Shown here piece after piece: positions 599 to 7,851 of a DNA stretch of 10,428 bases. Within the stretch, counting starts at the first letter, position 1. The number at the start of each line of letters is the position of its first letter. Under the pieces are notes generated by a model, which made no database searches, was not told the DNA's origin, and saw only the letters and a program-made list of their open reading frames with translations. Origin of the DNA: Candidatus Micrarchaeota archaeon (GTDB lineage: Archaea; Micrarchaeota; Micrarchaeia; Norongarragalinales; SBBD01); contig JBDRLB010000033.1 in NCBI GenBank assembly GCA_043813365.1, positions 1 to 10,428 on the forward strand, written 5' to 3'. A program made the translations under genes and the position numbers.

Positions 599-676
599 TC
601 CAGCTATAGTATCTACTGCGGGTTTGAAATACAACCTATAGTATCCGAAGAGGCATAGGACATCAATATTTAGTGC
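597..676 (+). promoter_or_regulatory. Three tandem NrdR-box-like operators (597-612, 629-644, 661-676), 32-bp period
   Basis: tatCCAGCTATAGtat, ataCAACCTATAGtat and catCAATATTTAGtgc align with the bacterial NrdR-box consensus acaCwAtATaTwGtgt (third best, first most degenerate). Starts are exactly 32 bp apart, matching the known 31-32 bp spacing of tandem NrdR boxes, and lie directly upstream of nrdR-nrdJ. Confidence 0.75.
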
Positions 677-705
677 CTTTTACGCCTCTTTTGCGGGTGT
701 ATAAT

Positions 706-1158
706 ATGCGTTGCCCATACTGCGGCCACATGGAAACCAAGGTGCTTGACTCGCGCGATGCGGAGGACCTTGCTGTAACGCGCCGCAGAAGGGAATGCGA
801 GAAATGCACAAAGCGCTTCACCACCTACGAGAGGGTGGAGTTCCTGGACCTTGTTGTCAGGAAGAAGGACGGCAAGACTGAGCCGTTCGACCGCAAGAAA
901 ATAGAAAGCGGCCTCCTCAAGGCAACAGAAAAAAGGCCCATCAGCCGCGAGAAAATAGAGGAGACGGTTGACGAGATAGAGCGGGACATCCGCAAGAAGG
1001 AGACTACCGAAATCAGCTCCTCCGAGATCGGCGCGATGGTGATGGAAAAGCTCAAGAAGATGGACAAGGTCGCGTACATCAGGTTCGCAAGCGTTTACAG
1101 GGAATTCGCGGACCTTGATGAATTTGAAGTGGAAGTGAAGAAATTATTGAAGAAATGA
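706..1158 (+). CDS. nrdR: Transcriptional repressor NrdR (Zn-ribbon + ATP-cone), 150 aa
   Basis: Canonical N-terminus MRCPYCG..TKVLDSR..RRRRECEKC.KRFTTYERVE, ATP-cone VRKKDGKTEPFDRKKI, and C-terminal DKVAYIRFASVYREF. Start moved from GTG 673 to ATG 706, which has an SD-like GGGTG at 695-699. Confidence 0.97.
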   Translation: MRCPYCGHMETKVLDSRDAEDLAVTRRRRECEKCTKRFTTYERVEFLDLVVRKKDGKTEPFDRKKIESGLLKATEKRPISREKIEETVDEIERDIRKKETTEISSSEIGAMVMEKLKKMDKVAYIRFASVYREFADLDEFEVEVKKLLKK

Positions 1159-1320
1159 TGCCAGTGGAAACAATCTCCGGCAAAAGCATTAATAAATGGA
1201 AAATCCGAGCATTAGTTCCAAAATATTTCACAGAAGGTTGTTTGTTTTTTCAAAAGGGGGGAAGATGGAAAATATTCGCATACAGAAACCGATGGACGCC
1301 AATCTAGGGGGTGGTAAAGC

Positions 1321-4059
1321 ATGCCTGAAAAGAAAATCGTGTATTTCAACGTACCCGCAGGTGAGAGAGATCCGATGACTAACGGAAACGGGAAGCTGCT
1401 CAAGATCAAGAAGCGCGACGGCAGGATCGTGGAATTCAACAAGGACCGCATCACAACCGCAATCTGGAAGGCCGCGAAGGCAGTTGGAGGAAGGGACAAG
1501 GCGCTTGCCAATGCATTGACCGATACAGTTGTGGACCAGCTCGGAAAGCAGTTCAAGGAAGGCAATTTCCCCAGCGTGGAGGACGTGCAGGACACTGTTG
1601 AAAAGGTGCTCATTGAGGGCGGCTATGCGAAGACCGCTAAGGCATACATAATTTACAGGCAGCAGCGCCAGGAGTTGAGGGAGGAGAAGAAACGCATACT
1701 CGAAAAGGATGAGATTGACGAGGTTGACAAGGTATTCGACTTGAACGCGCTCAAGGTGCTCAAGGCAAGATACCTCAGGAAGAACGAGGAAGGGAAACTG
1801 ACCGAAACCCCGAAGCAGCTTTTCACGCGGATCGCCATCCATACGGCGCTCCCGAACATAATCTACGATGCAAGGGTTTTCGACCAGAAGGCGCAGCAGA
1901 AAGTGCAGCCGCAGGAGGAGTTCGATCCAGCATCATTCGAATTTAAATTTTCAATAGGGAAATACCAGCTCAACCGCTACCATCTCGAAGCGCTAAAGCG
2001 CATGTACGGCCGCATGAACAGTTCGGGCCAGATGAAAATCGCTTTCAGCAGCATGATGGGGATGCTTTCCAAAGGCGAATTCTCGAAGTGCGAGGCGGGC
2101 ATAGATGACAACTATAATGTGATGGTGAGCAGGAAGTTCATGCCCAATACGCCAGCAATAGCGAATTTCGGCAACTCGCTCGGGATGGGAAGCGCGTGCT
2201 TCGTCATAGGGGTGGAGGATTCCATCGAGAGCATCATGGAAGGGCTGAAGAACACCGCAATCGTATTCAAATCCGGCGGGGGAATGGGATACAATTTCTC
2301 GCATCTTAGGCCGGAGGGCGATTTCGTGAGCTCAACATCGGGAATAGCAAGCGGCCCGCTCTCATTCATGCGCTTATTCGACACGATGACCGAAGTGATA
2401 AAGCAAGGCGGGATAAGGAGGGGCGCGAACATGGGGATCCTGAACTCCAACCACCCCGACATAGAAAAATTCGTGAAGGCGAAGGAGGGCAACAAGGCTC
2501 TCAGGAATTTCAACATTTCCGTCCTGCTTATGCCCGATTTCTGGGAATATTACGAGAAGAACGAGCCCTACCCGCTGGTGAACCCCAGGAATGGGGAAGT
2601 CGTGCGCACAGTAAATCCGCGCCGGCTTTTCGACATGATAGTATACCAGGCATGGGAATCTGCCGAGCCTGGAGTGATCTTCTACGACAAGGTGAACCAA
2701 TACAACCCGTTCCTCGAGCATATGGGCCCCATCATCACAACTAACCCCTGCGGCGAAGTGCTTCTTTACCCGTTCGAGAGCTGCAACCTTGGAAGCATCA
2801 ATGCATGGAATTTCGCGAAGGAGGATGAGAACGGCAAAACGTATTTCGATTGGGAAGCGCTCAAGCAGACCGTTTTCCTCACTACTGAATTCCTCGACAA
2901 TGTCATCGACGTGAGCAAGCACCCGCTGCCGCAATTCGAGGAGATGACGCTCAACACCCGCAAAATAGGATTAGGAGTCATGGGATTCGGCGATTGCCTG
3001 TATGAGCTGCGCATACCCTACAATTCCGAGGAGGGGAGGGCCTTTGCAGGAAAACTGATGGAATTCATCAACTACTGGAGCAAGGTGAAGAGCATTGAGC
3101 TTGCAAAAACGCGTGGCTCCCTTCCTTATTACAGCAAGAGCTTCTACCCGCAAGGGAAGATGCCAATTGCGGGCGCATATTCGAAAGAAGTGCAATTCGA
3201 TTGGGCGAAGGTAGGGGAGGATACGAAGAGGTTCGGCATCAGGAACGGCTTCACTACGGTTATCGCACCCACAGGAAGCATCTCCATGATAGCTGGCTGC
3301 TCTTCAGGCATCGAGCCCGTTTATTCGCTTGTTTTCGAGAAGAACGTGAAAGTGGGTTCGTTTTATTACATCGACGGCGCATTCGAAAAGGCAATGAAGG
3401 ACGAGGGGATCCACGATGAGAAGCTGATGGCCGAAATCAACGAGAACGGCGGCAGCGTCCAGCAGATAGGGTACATAACGCCAGCGCTCAAGAAAGTATT
3501 CGTCACTGCCATGGACATCACTCCCGAAGATCACATCCGCATGCTAGCAGCGTTCCAGAAATGGACCGACTCCTCCATAAGCAAGACCAACAACTTCCCT
3601 GCGGAAGCAACAGTAGATGACATGCGCGAGAGCTACCTCCTAGCGTACAAGCTCGGATGCAAGGACGTGACCGTTTTCCGCGATTCCTCCATCAAGGACC
3701 AGGTGCTCGTCGCCCCTCCGAAAAAATCGGTGCAGATGGCGGAAGCGAAAAAGGCGCAGGAAAGCACGCCCTCGCAAACATATGCTCACCCGCAGAACCC
3801 CACAGCCGCCTCCTCCACCCCAAAAAACATTACTGCAGAATCCCTGTTGCAGAAGCACGAAACAACCATGAAAGTCATGAACCAAAGTGCGGCCGAGCCT
3901 AAGGCGGCATATGCGAACATGAAGAACGCGGATTTCGCGAACATCACTTTCGGGGACAAGAATATTCAAAATTGCCCCTCCTGCAATTCCGAACAGCTGG
4001 AAAAGAAGGAGGGCTGCCTCACCTGCGCGGACTGCGGCTGGGGCTATTGCAGCGCTTGA
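1321..4059 (+). CDS. nrdJ: Class II (adenosylcobalamin-dependent) ribonucleotide reductase with N-terminal ATP-cone
   Basis: ATP-cone (IKKRDGRIVEFNKDRI), FMPNTP, SACFV, GGGMG, QGGIRRGANM, catalytic TNPCGE, ESCNLGS, RKIGLGVMG, IAPTGSIS, DSSISKT and a C-terminal CPSC...EGCLTCADCGWGYC tail. There is no class I YY pair and no nrdB nearby. An alternative start is ATG 1375 (AGGTGA upstream). Confidence 0.95.
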   Translation: MPEKKIVYFNVPAGERDPMTNGNGKLLKIKKRDGRIVEFNKDRITTAIWKAAKAVGGRDKALANALTDTVVDQLGKQFKEGNFPSVEDVQDTVEKVLIEGGYAKTAKAYIIYRQQRQELREEKKRILEKDEIDEVDKVFDLNALKVLKARYLRKNEEGKLTETPKQLFTRIAIHTALPNIIYDARVFDQKAQQKVQPQEEFDPASFEFKFSIGKYQLNRYHLEALKRMYGRMNSSGQMKIAFSSMMGMLSKGEFSKCEAGIDDNYNVMVSRKFMPNTPAIANFGNSLGMGSACFVIGVEDSIESIMEGLKNTAIVFKSGGGMGYNFSHLRPEGDFVSSTSGIASGPLSFMRLFDTMTEVIKQGGIRRGANMGILNSNHPDIEKFVKAKEGNKALRNFNISVLLMPDFWEYYEKNEPYPLVNPRNGEVVRTVNPRRLFDMIVYQAWESAEPGVIFYDKVNQYNPFLEHMGPIITTNPCGEVLLYPFESCNLGSINAWNFAKEDENGKTYFDWEALKQTVFLTTEFLDNVIDVSKHPLPQFEEMTLNTRKIGLGVMGFGDCLYELRIPYNSEEGRAFAGKLMEFINYWSKVKSIELAKTRGSLPYYSKSFYPQGKMPIAGAYSKEVQFDWAKVGEDTKRFGIRNGFTTVIAPTGSISMIAGCSSGIEPVYSLVFEKNVKVGSFYYIDGAFEKAMKDEGIHDEKLMAEINENGGSVQQIGYITPALKKVFVTAMDITPEDHIRMLAAFQKWTDSSISKTNNFPAEATVDDMRESYLLAYKLGCKDVTVFRDSSIKDQVLVAPPKKSVQMAEAKKAQESTPSQTYAHPQNPTAASSTPKNITAESLLQKHETTMKVMNQSAAEPKAAYANMKNADFANITFGDKNIQNCPSCNSEQLEKKEGCLTCADCGWGYCSA

Positions 4060-4510: not shown

Positions 4511-5926
4511 TTGCAAAAAAATATCGCCGCAGTGCTCATATTCGCAGTTCTGCTCAATTCCATCCATGCCGTCGATGTCCCCCTAGCGCTCGAATTCATC
4601 AAGGCAAAGCAGCTTCCCAACGGCGCATTCGACTCGTTCTCTTCTCCCCACTCTCCATCCGCAGTGCTTGCGCTCCATGCGTTTGAGGCAGATTCCCCTA
4701 ACTTGACAAATGGGCTCGCGTTCCTTAAATCCGACCTTGAGGACGATAATTCGTATGCATGGGGCGAGGCGGATCTCATCGGGCTCTCTCTTTATGCTTA
4801 TGCCCGAGCAGGCAACCTTTCAGATTTGAACCCGACCGGAATCATCCCTAGGCTAATCGCAATGCAGGGAGAAAACGGCGGCTTCAAAGGCTACTCGCAA
4901 TGCCTTGAAAACTGCTCCGACCCCGACTGGACGGTGCAGGTGTGGGGCGCAACTGAGGATTCCATAAGCACTTCTGCAGCATTGATGGGCCTCATCGCTT
5001 CCGGTTATATCGATGAAACCCTGAAAAACAGCTCCCTGCTCTACCTGGCTTCGCTTAAAAATTCCGACGGCAGCTACAACCTCACTCATGAAATAAAGCT
5101 AGGCTCGTTCTGGTCCCTCGCTCCGGATGCATATTCGCAAACAGCTTTCGTGCTTTGGGCACTGAACAAAGCCGGTAAAACAGAAGCTGATGTTGTGGAT
5201 TCCCTCGCCTACCTAGAGACTGCTGTTCAAATGAATTTCAACGATAGGAACCGGACATATGCCGCAGCATTGGCATCAATTGCATTTGCCACTTACAACC
5301 GCACCAACTCCTCGATTTATTCGCTTGAAAACCTTAGGTGCTCCCAAAACTCAGACGGCGGCTTCAGGGACTCCTCCAGAATGGCAACAGGCTCCAATGT
5401 AATGGATACGGCGTTCGCGCTCCTGGCAATCGGCAATAATATGGCATTAAACTGCTCCTCTTCAGGCATGGGCAACTCAACAAATTCCTCCAATTCAACG
5501 CCCTCCGTTTCACCTTCGCCATCACCATCCACGTCACCAACTGAAACAATATCGCCTTCCCCCACAACAAGTTCCAGCAGCTCAAGCTCAAATAATTATT
5601 ACTACCAGCAGCAATACGAATACCCGAGCGCTTCTCCAACGCCTTCACCCAAAGTTACTCCATCTCCTTCGCCCTCCGCTTTAAAAAAAATAATTGCGGA
5701 TGCACCCTCGCCCACTCCCCAACCTACTCCCAGCCCCTCAGCAACAGTTAAAAACCAGACCGCAGAAACAACTCCGTCCCCAACAGAAATGGGAAAACGG
5801 GATGATAAGGCGCCTCCGACAGGATTTTTCGTCGGCGCGAATATGCAAAACATGGCATATGCCGGAATCATCTTCATTGCCCTCGGCTTAGTCTTCATGG
5901 GATTCAAGAGCGGTGTTTTCAAATGA
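4511..5926 (+). CDS. Secreted, C-terminally membrane-anchored alpha6/alpha6-barrel (prenyltransferase/squalene-oxidase repeat) protein with Ser/Pro/Thr-rich stalk
   Basis: TTG start preceded by GAGGGGG, then a signal peptide. Repeats QLPNGAF, QGENGGF, KNSDGSY and QNSDGGF are each followed by a T/S-AxAL helix. A long (S/T)P-rich linker leads to PPTGFF, a transmembrane helix and a basic tail. Confidence 0.8.
   Translation: MQKNIAAVLIFAVLLNSIHAVDVPLALEFIKAKQLPNGAFDSFSSPHSPSAVLALHAFEADSPNLTNGLAFLKSDLEDDNSYAWGEADLIGLSLYAYARAGNLSDLNPTGIIPRLIAMQGENGGFKGYSQCLENCSDPDWTVQVWGATEDSISTSAALMGLIASGYIDETLKNSSLLYLASLKNSDGSYNLTHEIKLGSFWSLAPDAYSQTAFVLWALNKAGKTEADVVDSLAYLETAVQMNFNDRNRTYAAALASIAFATYNRTNSSIYSLENLRCSQNSDGGFRDSSRMATGSNVMDTAFALLAIGNNMALNCSSSGMGNSTNSSNSTPSVSPSPSPSTSPTETISPSPTTSSSSSSSNNYYYQQQYEYPSASPTPSPKVTPSPSPSALKKIIADAPSPTPQPTPSPSATVKNQTAETTPSPTEMGKRDDKAPPTGFFVGANMQNMAYAGIIFIALGLVFMGFKSGVFK
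5455..5785 (+). repeat. Low-complexity Ser/Pro/Thr coding repeats (SPSPSPSTSPT, SPTPSP, PSPTPQPTPSPS)
   Basis: Visible in the translation. Codons are diversified, so this is a protein-level linker rather than a DNA tandem repeat. Confidence 0.7.
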
Positions 5927-6453
5927 GCTTAATTTCCGGAATAAAATTCGCTTTAGGGCTGGCAGTCATCACTATTTTGCGAATGATCCAGATGCCCCTC
6001 CCCAACATCGAGCCCATAATGGCAACAATGCTCCCGTTCGCTAAAAAATACGGGAAAATAGCGGGATTCGTTTTCGCATCCGTTGCACTTGCATCCTTCG
6101 ATTTCATTTCCGGAAGGCTTGGGATGTGGACGATATATTGTGCAATTGCATATGGTGCAATCGGTTTTGCAGCAGGAAAATATTTTGCAAACAAAAAAAC
6201 CCACAAAATGCGCTATTATTTGGGCTTCGGGGTTATCGGAACCATTTTTTATGACGCAGTTACCGCCCTGCTATTCGGCTTCCAGTTCGGCCAGCCGCTT
6301 GCTGTCACAATAGCGGGGCAAATTCCGTTCACGCTCTATCACCTGATGGGGAATATGGCGATGATCGCAATTCTATCTCCGCTGGTTACAATGGCAATTG
6401 TGGAGAATCCTGCTCTCGTAACAGATAAGGTTTCAAGAGTAATAGAAAGTTAG
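5923..6453 (+). CDS. ECF transporter S-component, CbrT-like (putative cobalamin-specific)
   Basis: 176-aa hydrophobic protein with about 5-6 TM segments. Motifs LPNIEPIMA..L....YG...G and IPFTLYHLMGN resemble the PNxxP and PFDxxHxxGN motifs of CbrT-type S-components. ATGA overlap with the upstream stop suggests translational coupling. Confidence 0.75.
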   Translation: MSLISGIKFALGLAVITILRMIQMPLPNIEPIMATMLPFAKKYGKIAGFVFASVALASFDFISGRLGMWTIYCAIAYGAIGFAAGKYFANKKTHKMRYYLGFGVIGTIFYDAVTALLFGFQFGQPLAVTIAGQIPFTLYHLMGNMAMIAILSPLVTMAIVENPALVTDKVSRVIES

Positions 6454-6469
6454 CCTCCAGAATACGACC

Positions 6470-7114
6470 CTATTCTTCCTCCCAAACTTTGCTTGATTTT
6501 TTACGATCACCTAAGGGATGATCATGGCGTTCAAAATCAACAGGGCGATCGAACCCTTCGTCTGCCAGATACAATCCAAGTTGACGACGTGCCCTATTCA
6601 TCCGAGACTTTACTGTGCCACGAGGGATACTGAGCATACTCGCAATATCCTTATCAAGAAAGCCCGCATTATCCAGCTCGAAAACTGAGTGGAAAAGGGG
6701 ATGATTTTTACGAAGTCTATTTATTGCTCGGCCAAGTGCATTGCCGAGTATGGCGTTCGTCCTCTCGCCTTCAGCAGTCAACTGGCGAGGGTATAAAGAA
6801 CCTATAACATCGCATTGCGAAGCTCGTAATTTTTGCTCGGTCTTGATTGCCCTCGAAATATTTTGTTTGTTCATCACGGCTAGGCCCGTAATAAATGTTC
6901 TGAAAGGGGCAACTTTTGGGTCCCATTTTTCAAGGGAATGCGGCACATTGTCCAATATGCGATCCAAATACCGTTGTAAATGATATCCGTCCCTGCCATT
7001 AAAGGCTCGTAACAAAAATTTTTCCAAATATGGTCGAAGCGCCATATGCAGCTCGCCAAACTCGCCGGTTGCCCTTGCCTTAAGCGCCAATTCGTTTATC
7101 TGTCTGGCATTCAT
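6470..7114 (-). CDS. Sigma-70 ECF-family sigma-factor-like protein (regions 2 and 4)
   Basis: Region-2-like FGELH..LRPYL and WDPKVAPFRTFITGLAVMN. Strong region 4 HTH signature KDIASMLSIPRGTVKSRMNRARRQL. The 214-aa length is typical of ECF sigmas. Confidence 0.8.
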   Translation of the reverse strand: MNARQINELALKARATGEFGELHMALRPYLEKFLLRAFNGRDGYHLQRYLDRILDNVPHSLEKWDPKVAPFRTFITGLAVMNKQNISRAIKTEQKLRASQCDVIGSLYPRQLTAEGERTNAILGNALGRAINRLRKNHPLFHSVFELDNAGFLDKDIASMLSIPRGTVKSRMNRARRQLGLYLADEGFDRPVDFERHDHPLGDRKKSSKVWEEE

Positions 7115-7135
7115 TTGTCGGTCTACCTAAAAAGG

Positions 7136-7768
7136 TTATGCAGTTTTCGCCTCCTCCTCGTGATGCTTCGGTTCCTCCTTTTTCACTTCCGGATGCGGAA
7201 CATCCTTGTGCTCCGGCTTGGGTTCCGTTTTTGGATTCGCGGGTTCTCTCCTCTCCTGGGGCACAAACGGCCCTCTCCTATCCGGCCGGTCCATCATCCC
7301 GCCTTCCGCGCGAAGATCAATCACAATGTCGGCAGAATTCTTAAGAGCGGATGAAAAATCAGGTTCCGTTCCAACAACTATGGTGTCCTTCCCGTGCTCC
7401 TTCGCCTTTGTGAGAACTGGTTTGAAATCCGAATCGCGGGAAACAATTGCAATCGTGTCAATATGCGGCGAGAACATGTACTCAGCAGCTTCTAGCGCGA
7501 GCGCAACATCAACATCGGAAGGTATGATGACAACATCATAACCCTGGTTTGTCACCGCCTCGATCAGCTTGTCCGAAGCGAACTGGTCCAGGAATACTTT
7601 CGCGACTTTGATTTTCCCGTATTTCTGGAGCTTCTTTTTCACCTTGTCCAAATCGATGCCGAGCTCCTTGCGGATCATGTTCGGCCCGTCAACTAGGGCT
7701 GCAATATTCTTTTCCTTGGGCTTCTTGACCATCTCCTTGATCTGGTCAAGCACATTTGGCATTGCCAT
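7136..7768 (-). CDS. NYN (PIN-like/LabA-DUF88) domain protein, TIGR00288 type, with charged low-complexity C-terminal tail
   Basis: Motifs LVDGPNMIRKE, SDVDVALALEA, SRDSDFKP, GK.TIVVG.EP.FS.ALKNSAD. Start placed at ATG 7768 with AGGTGG 5 nt upstream (ATG 7762 also possible). Confidence 0.9.
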   Translation of the reverse strand: MAMPNVLDQIKEMVKKPKEKNIAALVDGPNMIRKELGIDLDKVKKKLQKYGKIKVAKVFLDQFASDKLIEAVTNQGYDVVIIPSDVDVALALEAAEYMFSPHIDTIAIVSRDSDFKPVLTKAKEHGKDTIVVGTEPDFSSALKNSADIVIDLRAEGGMMDRPDRRGPFVPQERREPANPKTEPKPEHKDVPHPEVKKEEPKHHEEEAKTA

Positions 7769-7782
7769 GACGACCACCTATC

Positions 7783-7820
7783 GAAATAATGGAAATAATG
7801 GAAAATATGGAAATATTTCC
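7783..7820. repeat. Four degenerate 9-bp tandem units ending in the perfect palindrome GGAAATATTTCC
   Basis: GAAATAATG (7783), GAAATAATG (7792), GAAAATATG (7801), GAAATATTT (7810). The palindrome spans 7809-7820. Confidence 0.8.
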
Positions 7821-7829
7821 GCACGAGGG

Positions 7830-7837
7830 TATTTATA
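7830..7837 (-). promoter_or_regulatory. Putative TATA box for the NYN (and possibly sigma-like) transcript
   Basis: TATAAATA on the - strand about 60 nt upstream of the NYN start. BRE is not obvious. Confidence 0.45.
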
Positions 7838-7851
7838 GCCGTGGGGTTGCC

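Follow-up and report, generated by a model that had tools for sequence, protein, structure and literature searches.

Transcription initiation in bacteria is defined by sigma factors, while archaea use TBP and TFB. The sigma genes retained by many DPANN genomes are thus anomalous and unexplained. Rinke et al. are said to have come across sigma-like genes in DPANN single-cell genomes in 2013. That sigma genes are on record in DPANN archaea, as the first-pass annotation of the present locus had stated, is borne out by the portion of Castelle et al. 2021 (Front Microbiol 12:660052) drawn on here: it groups the DPANN sigma-70-class genes as family fam00359, prevalent in Woesearchaeota, with no anti-sigma factors and an unclear mechanism, and the supplement row of this family reads primary sigma factor, K03086, PF04545. 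The question raised by the locus is what a short gene of bacterial ECF sigma-factor type does in a Micrarchaeota genome. The gene, named sigL here, lies between a NYN gene and a membrane gene in a window of 10,428 nucleotides, i. e. the whole stretch of DNA that was analysed (Table 1). Most likely, its product is an accessory DNA-binding protein of HTH type, or else the gene was acquired transiently. With somewhat better than even confidence, we read sigL as an intact, extremely diverged ECF-derived accessory gene whose product is likely a stand-alone DNA-binding regulator rather than a classical sigma factor.

Table 1. Coordinates of sigL, its parts and its neighbours in the window.
Feature	Position	Strand	Description and basis
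sigL (name given here)	6470..7114	-	214 aa, coordinates include the stop codon; ORF list
Sigma-2-like N-terminal half	aa 1-105, 6800..7114	-	four helices; register alignment with ECF sigma-2
Region 2.2 equivalent	aa 41-58, 6941..6994	-	alignment A1; acidic core-binding patch lost
Sigma-4-like domain	aa 110-190, 6545..6787	-	phmmer to SigH, structure model
HTH recognition part	aa 155-179, 6578..6652, IASMLSIPRGTVKSRMNRARRQL region	-	best-conserved stretch; Pfam Sigma70_r4_2
C-terminal tail	aa 191-214, 6473..6544	-	predicted disordered, without match; pLDDT <50
NYN/sigL spacer	7115..7135	-	21 nt; weak AGGT 13 nt before the sigL ATG
NYN gene	7136..7777	-	upstream of sigL; TIGR00288 family, NCBIfam 202.4 bits, Pfam NYN
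NYN promoter box TATAAATA	7830..7837	-	sequence
Membrane gene	5923..6453	+	convergent, downstream of sigL; 176 aa, hydrophobic

The host and its contig

Judged by its genes, the host is a genuine DPANN archaeon of the Micrarchaeota, order Norongarragalinales. Its genome (G000; 1.34 Mb, 88.6% complete, 3% contaminated) encodes TFB (TFIIB family) and one Rpo1N, the largest RNA polymerase subunit, which is split in archaeal style and 92-94% identical between congeners. Matches to RNA_pol_A_CTD, present in 10/10 bacterial controls, number zero in this 88.6% complete genome. An archaeal DnaG equivalog (495.8 bits) is encoded in the window, together with the TIGR00288 NYN protein, a CAAX protease, a class II ribonucleotide reductase and NrdR.

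The gene order nrdJ-DUF4430-toroid protein-membrane gene / NYN-CAAX-DnaG-CBS recurs in three of four congener loci and partly in the fourth. It is conserved on both sides of the sigL position in G001, G002 and G003; G005 keeps it on the DnaG side, and G004 in the surroundings of the slot. As this order is common to four of the five congeners, the contig is genuinely archaeal; the archaeal locus assumed in the first pass thus stands, the flanks being archaeal and the contig neither of bacterial origin nor a chimera. Pieces of the stretch occur without differences in short contigs of four groundwater runs that belong to two studies, and one of these samples may be the source of the assembly. Among 12 runs listed for the stretch there was no RNA run, and the four consist of DNA contigs. 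One of them, from another run, covers 6039-6506 and hence the membrane-gene/sigL junction, again without differences. The NYN/sigL junction is unbridged by these short contigs, the nearest of which ends at 7121.

An intact reading frame of atypical composition

The 214-aa sigma-like ORF exists as annotated, and its frame (645 nt) was kept open in 0/20000 composition-preserving shuffles. The flanking gaps of 16 nt (6454-6469, stop side of the membrane gene) and 21 nt (7115-7135, stop side of NYN) are exact, as are the earlier hand counts of GC, 0.450 over 6481-6720 versus 0.550 over an nrdJ sample at 1441-1680. Among the 839 long ORFs of the genome, sigL ranks in the 1st percentile for GC3 (0.423) and in the 2nd for the codon adaptation index (0.656). 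Its GC lies below that of the flanking housekeeping genes and is similarly low in the adjoining membrane gene (0.454); the contig as a whole (0.496) is close to the genome mean (0.494). This atypical composition, the GC3 rank in particular, fits the horizontal acquisition that had been proposed; sigL is either a fairly recent arrival or a very fast-evolving gene. Both domains of the encoded protein are basic, with pI values of 9.8 and 10.5-10.8.

The sigma-4 half

The HTH is the sole stretch of sigL recognised at curated cut-offs. Pfam Sigma70_r4_2 (PF08281) exceeds its cut-off of 25.7 with 26.4 bits and aligns to aa 155-179 only, corresponding to the second half of the model, while PF04545 reaches 22.9 bits, under its cut-off of 24.1. 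The similarity to the sigma-4 domain of M. tuberculosis SigH (aa 131-205) has a phmmer E value of 1.2e-5, and a PDB search with the single sequence matched the sigma-4 domains of SigH (E 1.2e-5) and SigR (3.4e-4) only; the HTH is about 40% identical to these actinobacterial domains. In the alignment-guided structure model, predicted sigma-4 superimposes on 3hug_A (SigL) with a Z score of 11.7 and an rmsd of 1.7 over 79/80 residues. Hence, the region 4 HTH that had been called strong is present, if by a narrow margin over the Pfam cut-off. Three more weak Sigma70_r4_2 matches in the genome look by eye like Lrp/AsnC-like regulators and were set aside as not sigma-like.

The sigma-2-like half and the loss of the acidic patch

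Pfam Sigma70_r2 (PF04542) gave no match: none in sigL at E <= 0.1 and none genome-wide at E <= 10. Other profiles reach into this half. TIGR02937 (sigma70-ECF, NCBIfam) covers aa 59-180 with 22.6 bits (cut-off 42.9), and PHROG 1740, annotated as 'sigma factor', matches at E 2.2e-5 and aligns from aa 59 on. A recognisable region 2.3-2.4, as described in the first pass, is thus upheld only in part, by the alignments that start at aa 59 and not by Sigma70_r2. Searched alone, the N-terminal 110 aa match two ECF sigma factors at 17.3 and 14.5 bits, in register with sigma-2; the maximum from shuffled sequences is 8.6 bits (n=100), the targets having been pre-selected for whole-protein similarity. 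The modelled sigma-2 domain of the alignment-guided prediction resembles SigC (2o7g_A; Z 11.8, rmsd 1.6, 84/88 residues) and region 2 of E. coli SigE (4lup_A; Z 11.6). A sigma-2 fold of this half is neither refuted nor independently proven by the models, since the good one was built on an ECF alignment and the single-sequence one is poor.

In ECF sigma factors, the acidic surface of region 2.2 binds the polymerase core via the beta-prime clamp helix. The replacement of this motif by YHLQRYLDRIL is real: the sequence occupies aa 43-53, where ECF homologues have an acidic stretch, and the net charge of region 2.2 is 0 in sigL versus -2 to -4 in ten ECF homologues. The region is not conserved even with the protein encoded at the syntenic position in G002 (see below).

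Whole-protein relatives and structure models

Across its whole length, sigL has only remote relatives. When 1.84 billion representatives were searched exhaustively with phmmer, 19 matches were obtained at E <= 0.001; besides sigL itself and a repetitive 1929-aa protein, these lie between E 8e-6 and 9e-4. Nine of them are full-length ECF sigma factors with both Pfam domains, aligned over about aa 17-195 of sigL, the best at E ~3e-4, and four of the nine clusters bear the name sigma-70, ECF subfamily. As many as 36 NCBIfam sigma models match, all far under their cut-offs, several of them spanning aa 59-186 or 18-180. Weak matches to GerE/NarL-type HTH profiles appear with the ECF alignment of sigL. 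Among 5.8 billion clustered proteins no relative other than sigL itself was found; scans of viral and metagenome contigs gave 8 and 113 pattern matches, respectively, 0 of which were confirmed, and a protein search of 60 related genomes yielded no E value better than 0.03.

AlphaFold2 with a 13-row alignment predicts two helical domains at a pLDDT of 84.1. The top Foldseek and VIA matches of this model are all ECF sigma factors (Z ~11.7, rmsd 1.6-2.0), and since the alignment consists mostly of ECF sigma factors, the model is not independent evidence. The single-sequence prediction is poor (pLDDT 44.3), with helices at the same positions as in the guided model. On these grounds, sigL is filed here as a remote, extremely diverged derivative of ECF sigma-70 factors, not as a working member of the group.

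A variable slot within the genus

The position after NYN is a small variable island in the genus. In G002 (L010:5797-6381), it is occupied by an intact ECF-like gene (194 aa) that is oriented like sigL and whose product passes both Pfam cut-offs (r2 25.4 versus 24, r4_2 29.3 versus 25.7). The two proteins share 18% global identity, or 26% over 68 aa (E 1e-4), with the region 2.2 patch neutral in both; for the neighbouring proteins, identity between congeners is 43-87%. In G001, G003 and G004 the slot is empty, with the flanking genes back to back, 10-61 nt apart. G005 (L011:2996-5244) has an MNT (Polbeta/NTP_transf_2) and a HepT gene after NYN, together with PIN_2 and its small upstream ORF and a gene for a DUF1801 protein. 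Thus, sigL is one of the accessory genes, occupying a slot of variable content whose borders, NYN and the membrane gene, are conserved. Either one ancestral gene underwent near-saturated divergence and three losses, or the slot was filled twice.

Neighbouring genes and transcription

The NYN protein is 77-87% identical in 5/5 congeners, and its likely start is the ATG at 7768, preceded by GGTGG. The TATAAATA box, tandem TTCCAT(T/A)AT-type repeats and GGTGG (7778-7851; L007, L010-L013) are found in all six genomes of the genus. A connection of the NYN promoter repeats to sigL was considered and rejected, as the TATA box and the TTCCAT-type repeats occur in 6/6 genomes with or without sigL. Between box and repeats, a perfect 12-bp palindrome, GGAAATATTTCC, is seen in the window only. 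The 21-nt NYN/sigL spacer has no TATA-like box. From this spacing and the lack of a box in the spacer, co-transcription of the two genes may be deduced: sigL would probably be read through from the archaeal TATA promoter of NYN, as the tail of the NYN transcript.

On the other side, the 176-aa membrane protein has no Pfam or NCBIfam match; it is 69-72% identical in 3/4 congener loci compared, with a like ORF beside NYN in the fifth congener. Co-encoded anti-sigma factors are common for ECF sigma factors, not universal. The membrane gene is kept whether or not sigL is present and is therefore not an anti-sigma partner. The same retention holds for NYN, and zf-HC2, the anti-sigma family searched for, has 0 matches in the 88.6% complete genome. 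The statement that no anti-sigma gene adjoins sigL is correct in this sense.

The membrane gene is preceded by a gene for a 471-aa surface-type protein, the two together covering 4511-6453 (+). This protein combines an alpha/alpha-toroid domain (prenyltransferase/TED-like) with a stalk rich in Ser, Thr and Pro, and ends in a hydrophobic anchor at its C-terminus. The two genes share 4 nt, the stop of the first overlapping the start of the second, and are kept together in the genus.

Sigma-like genes in the order and the phylum

Of the 67 genomes of the order, 25 have Sigma70_r2 matches over the cut-off, as do 10 of the 21 high-quality ones (controls: 10/10 bacterial genomes positive, 0/4 archaeal). 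In a phylum sample of 301 genomes it was found in 35, concentrated in the order and one other family (15/65). All these counts are lower bounds, since the sigma-like genes of G000 escape Pfam Sigma70_r2. A profile built from five short archaeal ECF-like proteins matches in 8/67 genomes, five of which are the sources of the seed.

A second sigma-like gene of the host, G000:C69:865-1614 (-) (L053, 249 aa), was found only by tblastn with a relative from G032. The two are 24% identical over 238 aa (E 4e-7), and the host protein has no Pfam sigma domain. The gene adjoins one for a ParE-family toxin and a small upstream ORF.

The ECF-like proteins of G002, G020, G010 and G024 are 15-23% identical to sigL. 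The gene contexts in G024 (LemA/M48 peptidase) and in G020 and G010 (surface-protein genes) differ from that of sigL, and no neighbour common to the archaeal ECF-like genes of G000, G002, G020, G010 and G024 was seen. In G024 (L003:510-2613), a 209-aa ECF-like gene is flanked by LemA on one side and an M48 (HtpX-like) peptidase gene on the other; 2 nt separate its end from the start of the peptidase. The same genome has a further ECF-like copy (G024:C61:445-975, L093) with one in-frame TAG, which makes it a pseudogene or a case of sequencing error.

Many of the proteins with Sigma70_r2 matches are long. Such long sigma-like proteins of the order (L018, L020, L024, L037, L043, L047) have about 470-660 aa as called, with frames of up to 793 aa. 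They combine a primary-sigma-like core (Sigma70_r2 up to 85.9 bits) with large N-terminal extensions, in several of which 'HGG' modules are repeated.

Possible roles of sigL

A classical sigma factor is unlikely in view of the neutralised region 2.2, the encoded TFB and archaeal Rpo1N, and the failure to find a bacterial alpha-CTD in the 88.6% complete genome. DNA binding is the likeliest activity because the HTH is best kept, both domains are basic, and neither a bacterial core nor an anti-sigma factor was found. Most likely, sigL would regulate transcription on its own by sequence-specific DNA binding through its sigma-4 HTH; the basic sigma-2-like half may serve as an accessory or a dimerisation/DNA-contact module.

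The main rival is a functionless passenger, recently acquired or decaying, as yet undisrupted and useless in the archaeon. We consider this distinctly less likely than a regulator, although the atypical codons and the empty slot in three of five congeners are equally compatible with a gene that was acquired transiently and may be useless. GC3 in the 1st and codon adaptation in the 2nd percentile, the lack of relatives in 5.8 billion proteins and in the viral and metagenome contig scans, the slot left empty in G001, G003 and G004, the lost region 2.2 motif, the failure of Pfam r2 and the in-frame TAG in the related G024 copy are all what would be expected of such a gene. Against it, the frame of 214 codons is intact at 0/20000 shuffles, the helix pattern is preserved in both domains, and the gene is tightly packed between spacers of 21 and 16 nt. 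In addition, there is the intact G002 gene in the same slot despite near-saturated divergence, which is hard to explain without selection for an open, folded protein.

Cargo of a mobile element or virus, placed in a recombination-prone slot and serving the element rather than the cell, appears improbable as the role of sigL, while a mobile-element route to the slot is plausible. The slots of congeners differ, that of G005 containing MNT/HepT and PIN_2 toxin-antitoxin genes; PHROG sigma-factor families match sigL, and its codon usage is atypical. In addition, rpoS-like genes are reported in DPANN viruses and one prophage in the portion of PMC12647753 drawn on here. Yet, the window contains no integrase, tRNA (0) or other viral gene, and the repeats around sigL are short two-copy ones of chance size, with no larger direct or inverted repeats. 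Moreover, the viral contig scan returned no relative of sigL, and the insert is a single ORF with margins of about 20 nt.

Slightly less probable still is a retargeted sigma factor, in which sigL would contact the Rpo1N clamp coiled-coil via its sigma-2-like domain and act as an alternative promoter-specificity or clamp-binding factor. This coiled-coil is present in Rpo1N and invariant across the order (alignment A2), and many genomes of the order keep strong Sigma70_r2 genes (to 85.9 bits) where only an archaeal polymerase was found. That the patch, acidic in ECF homologues, is neutral in both sigL and the G002 protein could reflect drift or re-adaptation. However, region 2.2 of sigL differs even from that of its syntenic counterpart, and most congeners do without the gene. 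When sigL aa 1-105 and Rpo1N aa 1-330 were modelled as a complex (A1, A2), the scores were 0.13 and 0.03 relative to a mark of 0.32, which speaks neither for nor against binding. A bolder form of the idea, and one with even longer odds against it, is that the sigma-2-like domain was re-tuned, its acidic patch becoming neutral or basic, to grip the clamp coiled-coil of the archaeal polymerase, so that some DPANN archaea would have a sigma-like promoter-specificity layer over TBP/TFB, with the fast-evolving short ECF-like copies, sigL included, as strain-specific switches.

An assembly or binning artefact that joined a bacterial fragment to archaeal DNA, as the lower GC of sigL relative to the flanking housekeeping genes and the NYN/sigL junction, left unbridged with the nearest short contig ending at 7121, might suggest, is close to refuted by the archaeal, syntenic flanks, the sigma-like gene of G002 in exactly the same slot, the other-run contig across the membrane-gene/sigL junction, a contig GC (0.496) that equals the genome mean (0.494), and the similarly low GC (0.454) of the adjoining membrane gene. 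The first-pass suggestion of a secreted or injected effector that manipulates the RNA polymerase of a bacterial partner draws on the family resemblance of sigL and nothing further, and is very improbable: sequence and context show no sign of export, the N-terminus is predicted to be the first helix of the sigma-2-like domain, no neighbour is related to secretion, the ECF-type acidic patch is lost, and the described hosts of Micrarchaeota are archaea.

Relation to known sigma factors and regulators

Bacterial group 4 ECF sigma factors such as SigH (5zx2_F), S. coelicolor SigR (5fgm_A) and E. coli SigE (1or7/4lup) resemble sigL in size (about 200 aa) and in the arrangement of sigma-2 (sigma-2-like in sigL) and sigma-4 around a disordered linker. 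They differ from sigL, in which Sigma70_r2 fails, region 2.2 is neutralised and the domains are basic, and for which neither an anti-sigma partner nor a bacterial core was found. The syntenic gene of G002 and the ECF-like genes of G020, G010 and G024 belong to the size class of sigL and share its domain order, with region 2.2 neutral in G002 as well. By analogy, stand-alone sigma-4/LuxR-GerE-type HTH regulators may have in common with sigL what the working model assumes, namely DNA binding by way of a sigma-4-type HTH in a protein that does not serve as a sigma factor. In contrast to these regulators, sigL has a sigma-2-like N-terminal half in place of the receiver or ligand-binding domain.

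As far as the cited portion of Castelle et al. 2021 extends, fam00359 and sigL are alike in being bacterial-type sigma genes of bona fide DPANN archaea that lack an anti-sigma factor, stand beside TBP/TFB-type machinery and have no known function. Unlike fam00359, sigL is a short two-domain, ECF-like gene of Micrarchaeota whose sigma-2 is degenerate and for which no close relative was detected; judged by its supplement row, fam00359 is a closer fit to the long sigma genes of the order than to the short sigL. The gene is thus a new, fast-evolving member of a known DPANN sigma-gene oddity. Taken alone, the locus leaves the role of DPANN sigma-like proteins unexplained. It offers a within-genus comparison of the gene itself, a replacement of about 18% identity and an empty slot, and so adds a presence/absence and divergence series as well as a second, hidden paralogue to the known cases. 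It also indicates that profile-based counts underestimate sigma-like genes, two of which escape Pfam Sigma70_r2 in the sigL genome.

The distal part of the window

The window has 0 Rfam matches. Upstream of nrdR, positions 300-670 have a GC of 0.33-0.37, with neither a convincing ORF nor an Rfam match. At 673-4059 (+), a bacterial-type NrdR (Zn ribbon and ATP-cone) is encoded upstream of the class II ribonucleotide reductase. The reductase has an ATP-cone of its own and a low-complexity C-terminal extension of about 120 aa that ends in a CxxC...CxxC zinc-ribbon-like motif.
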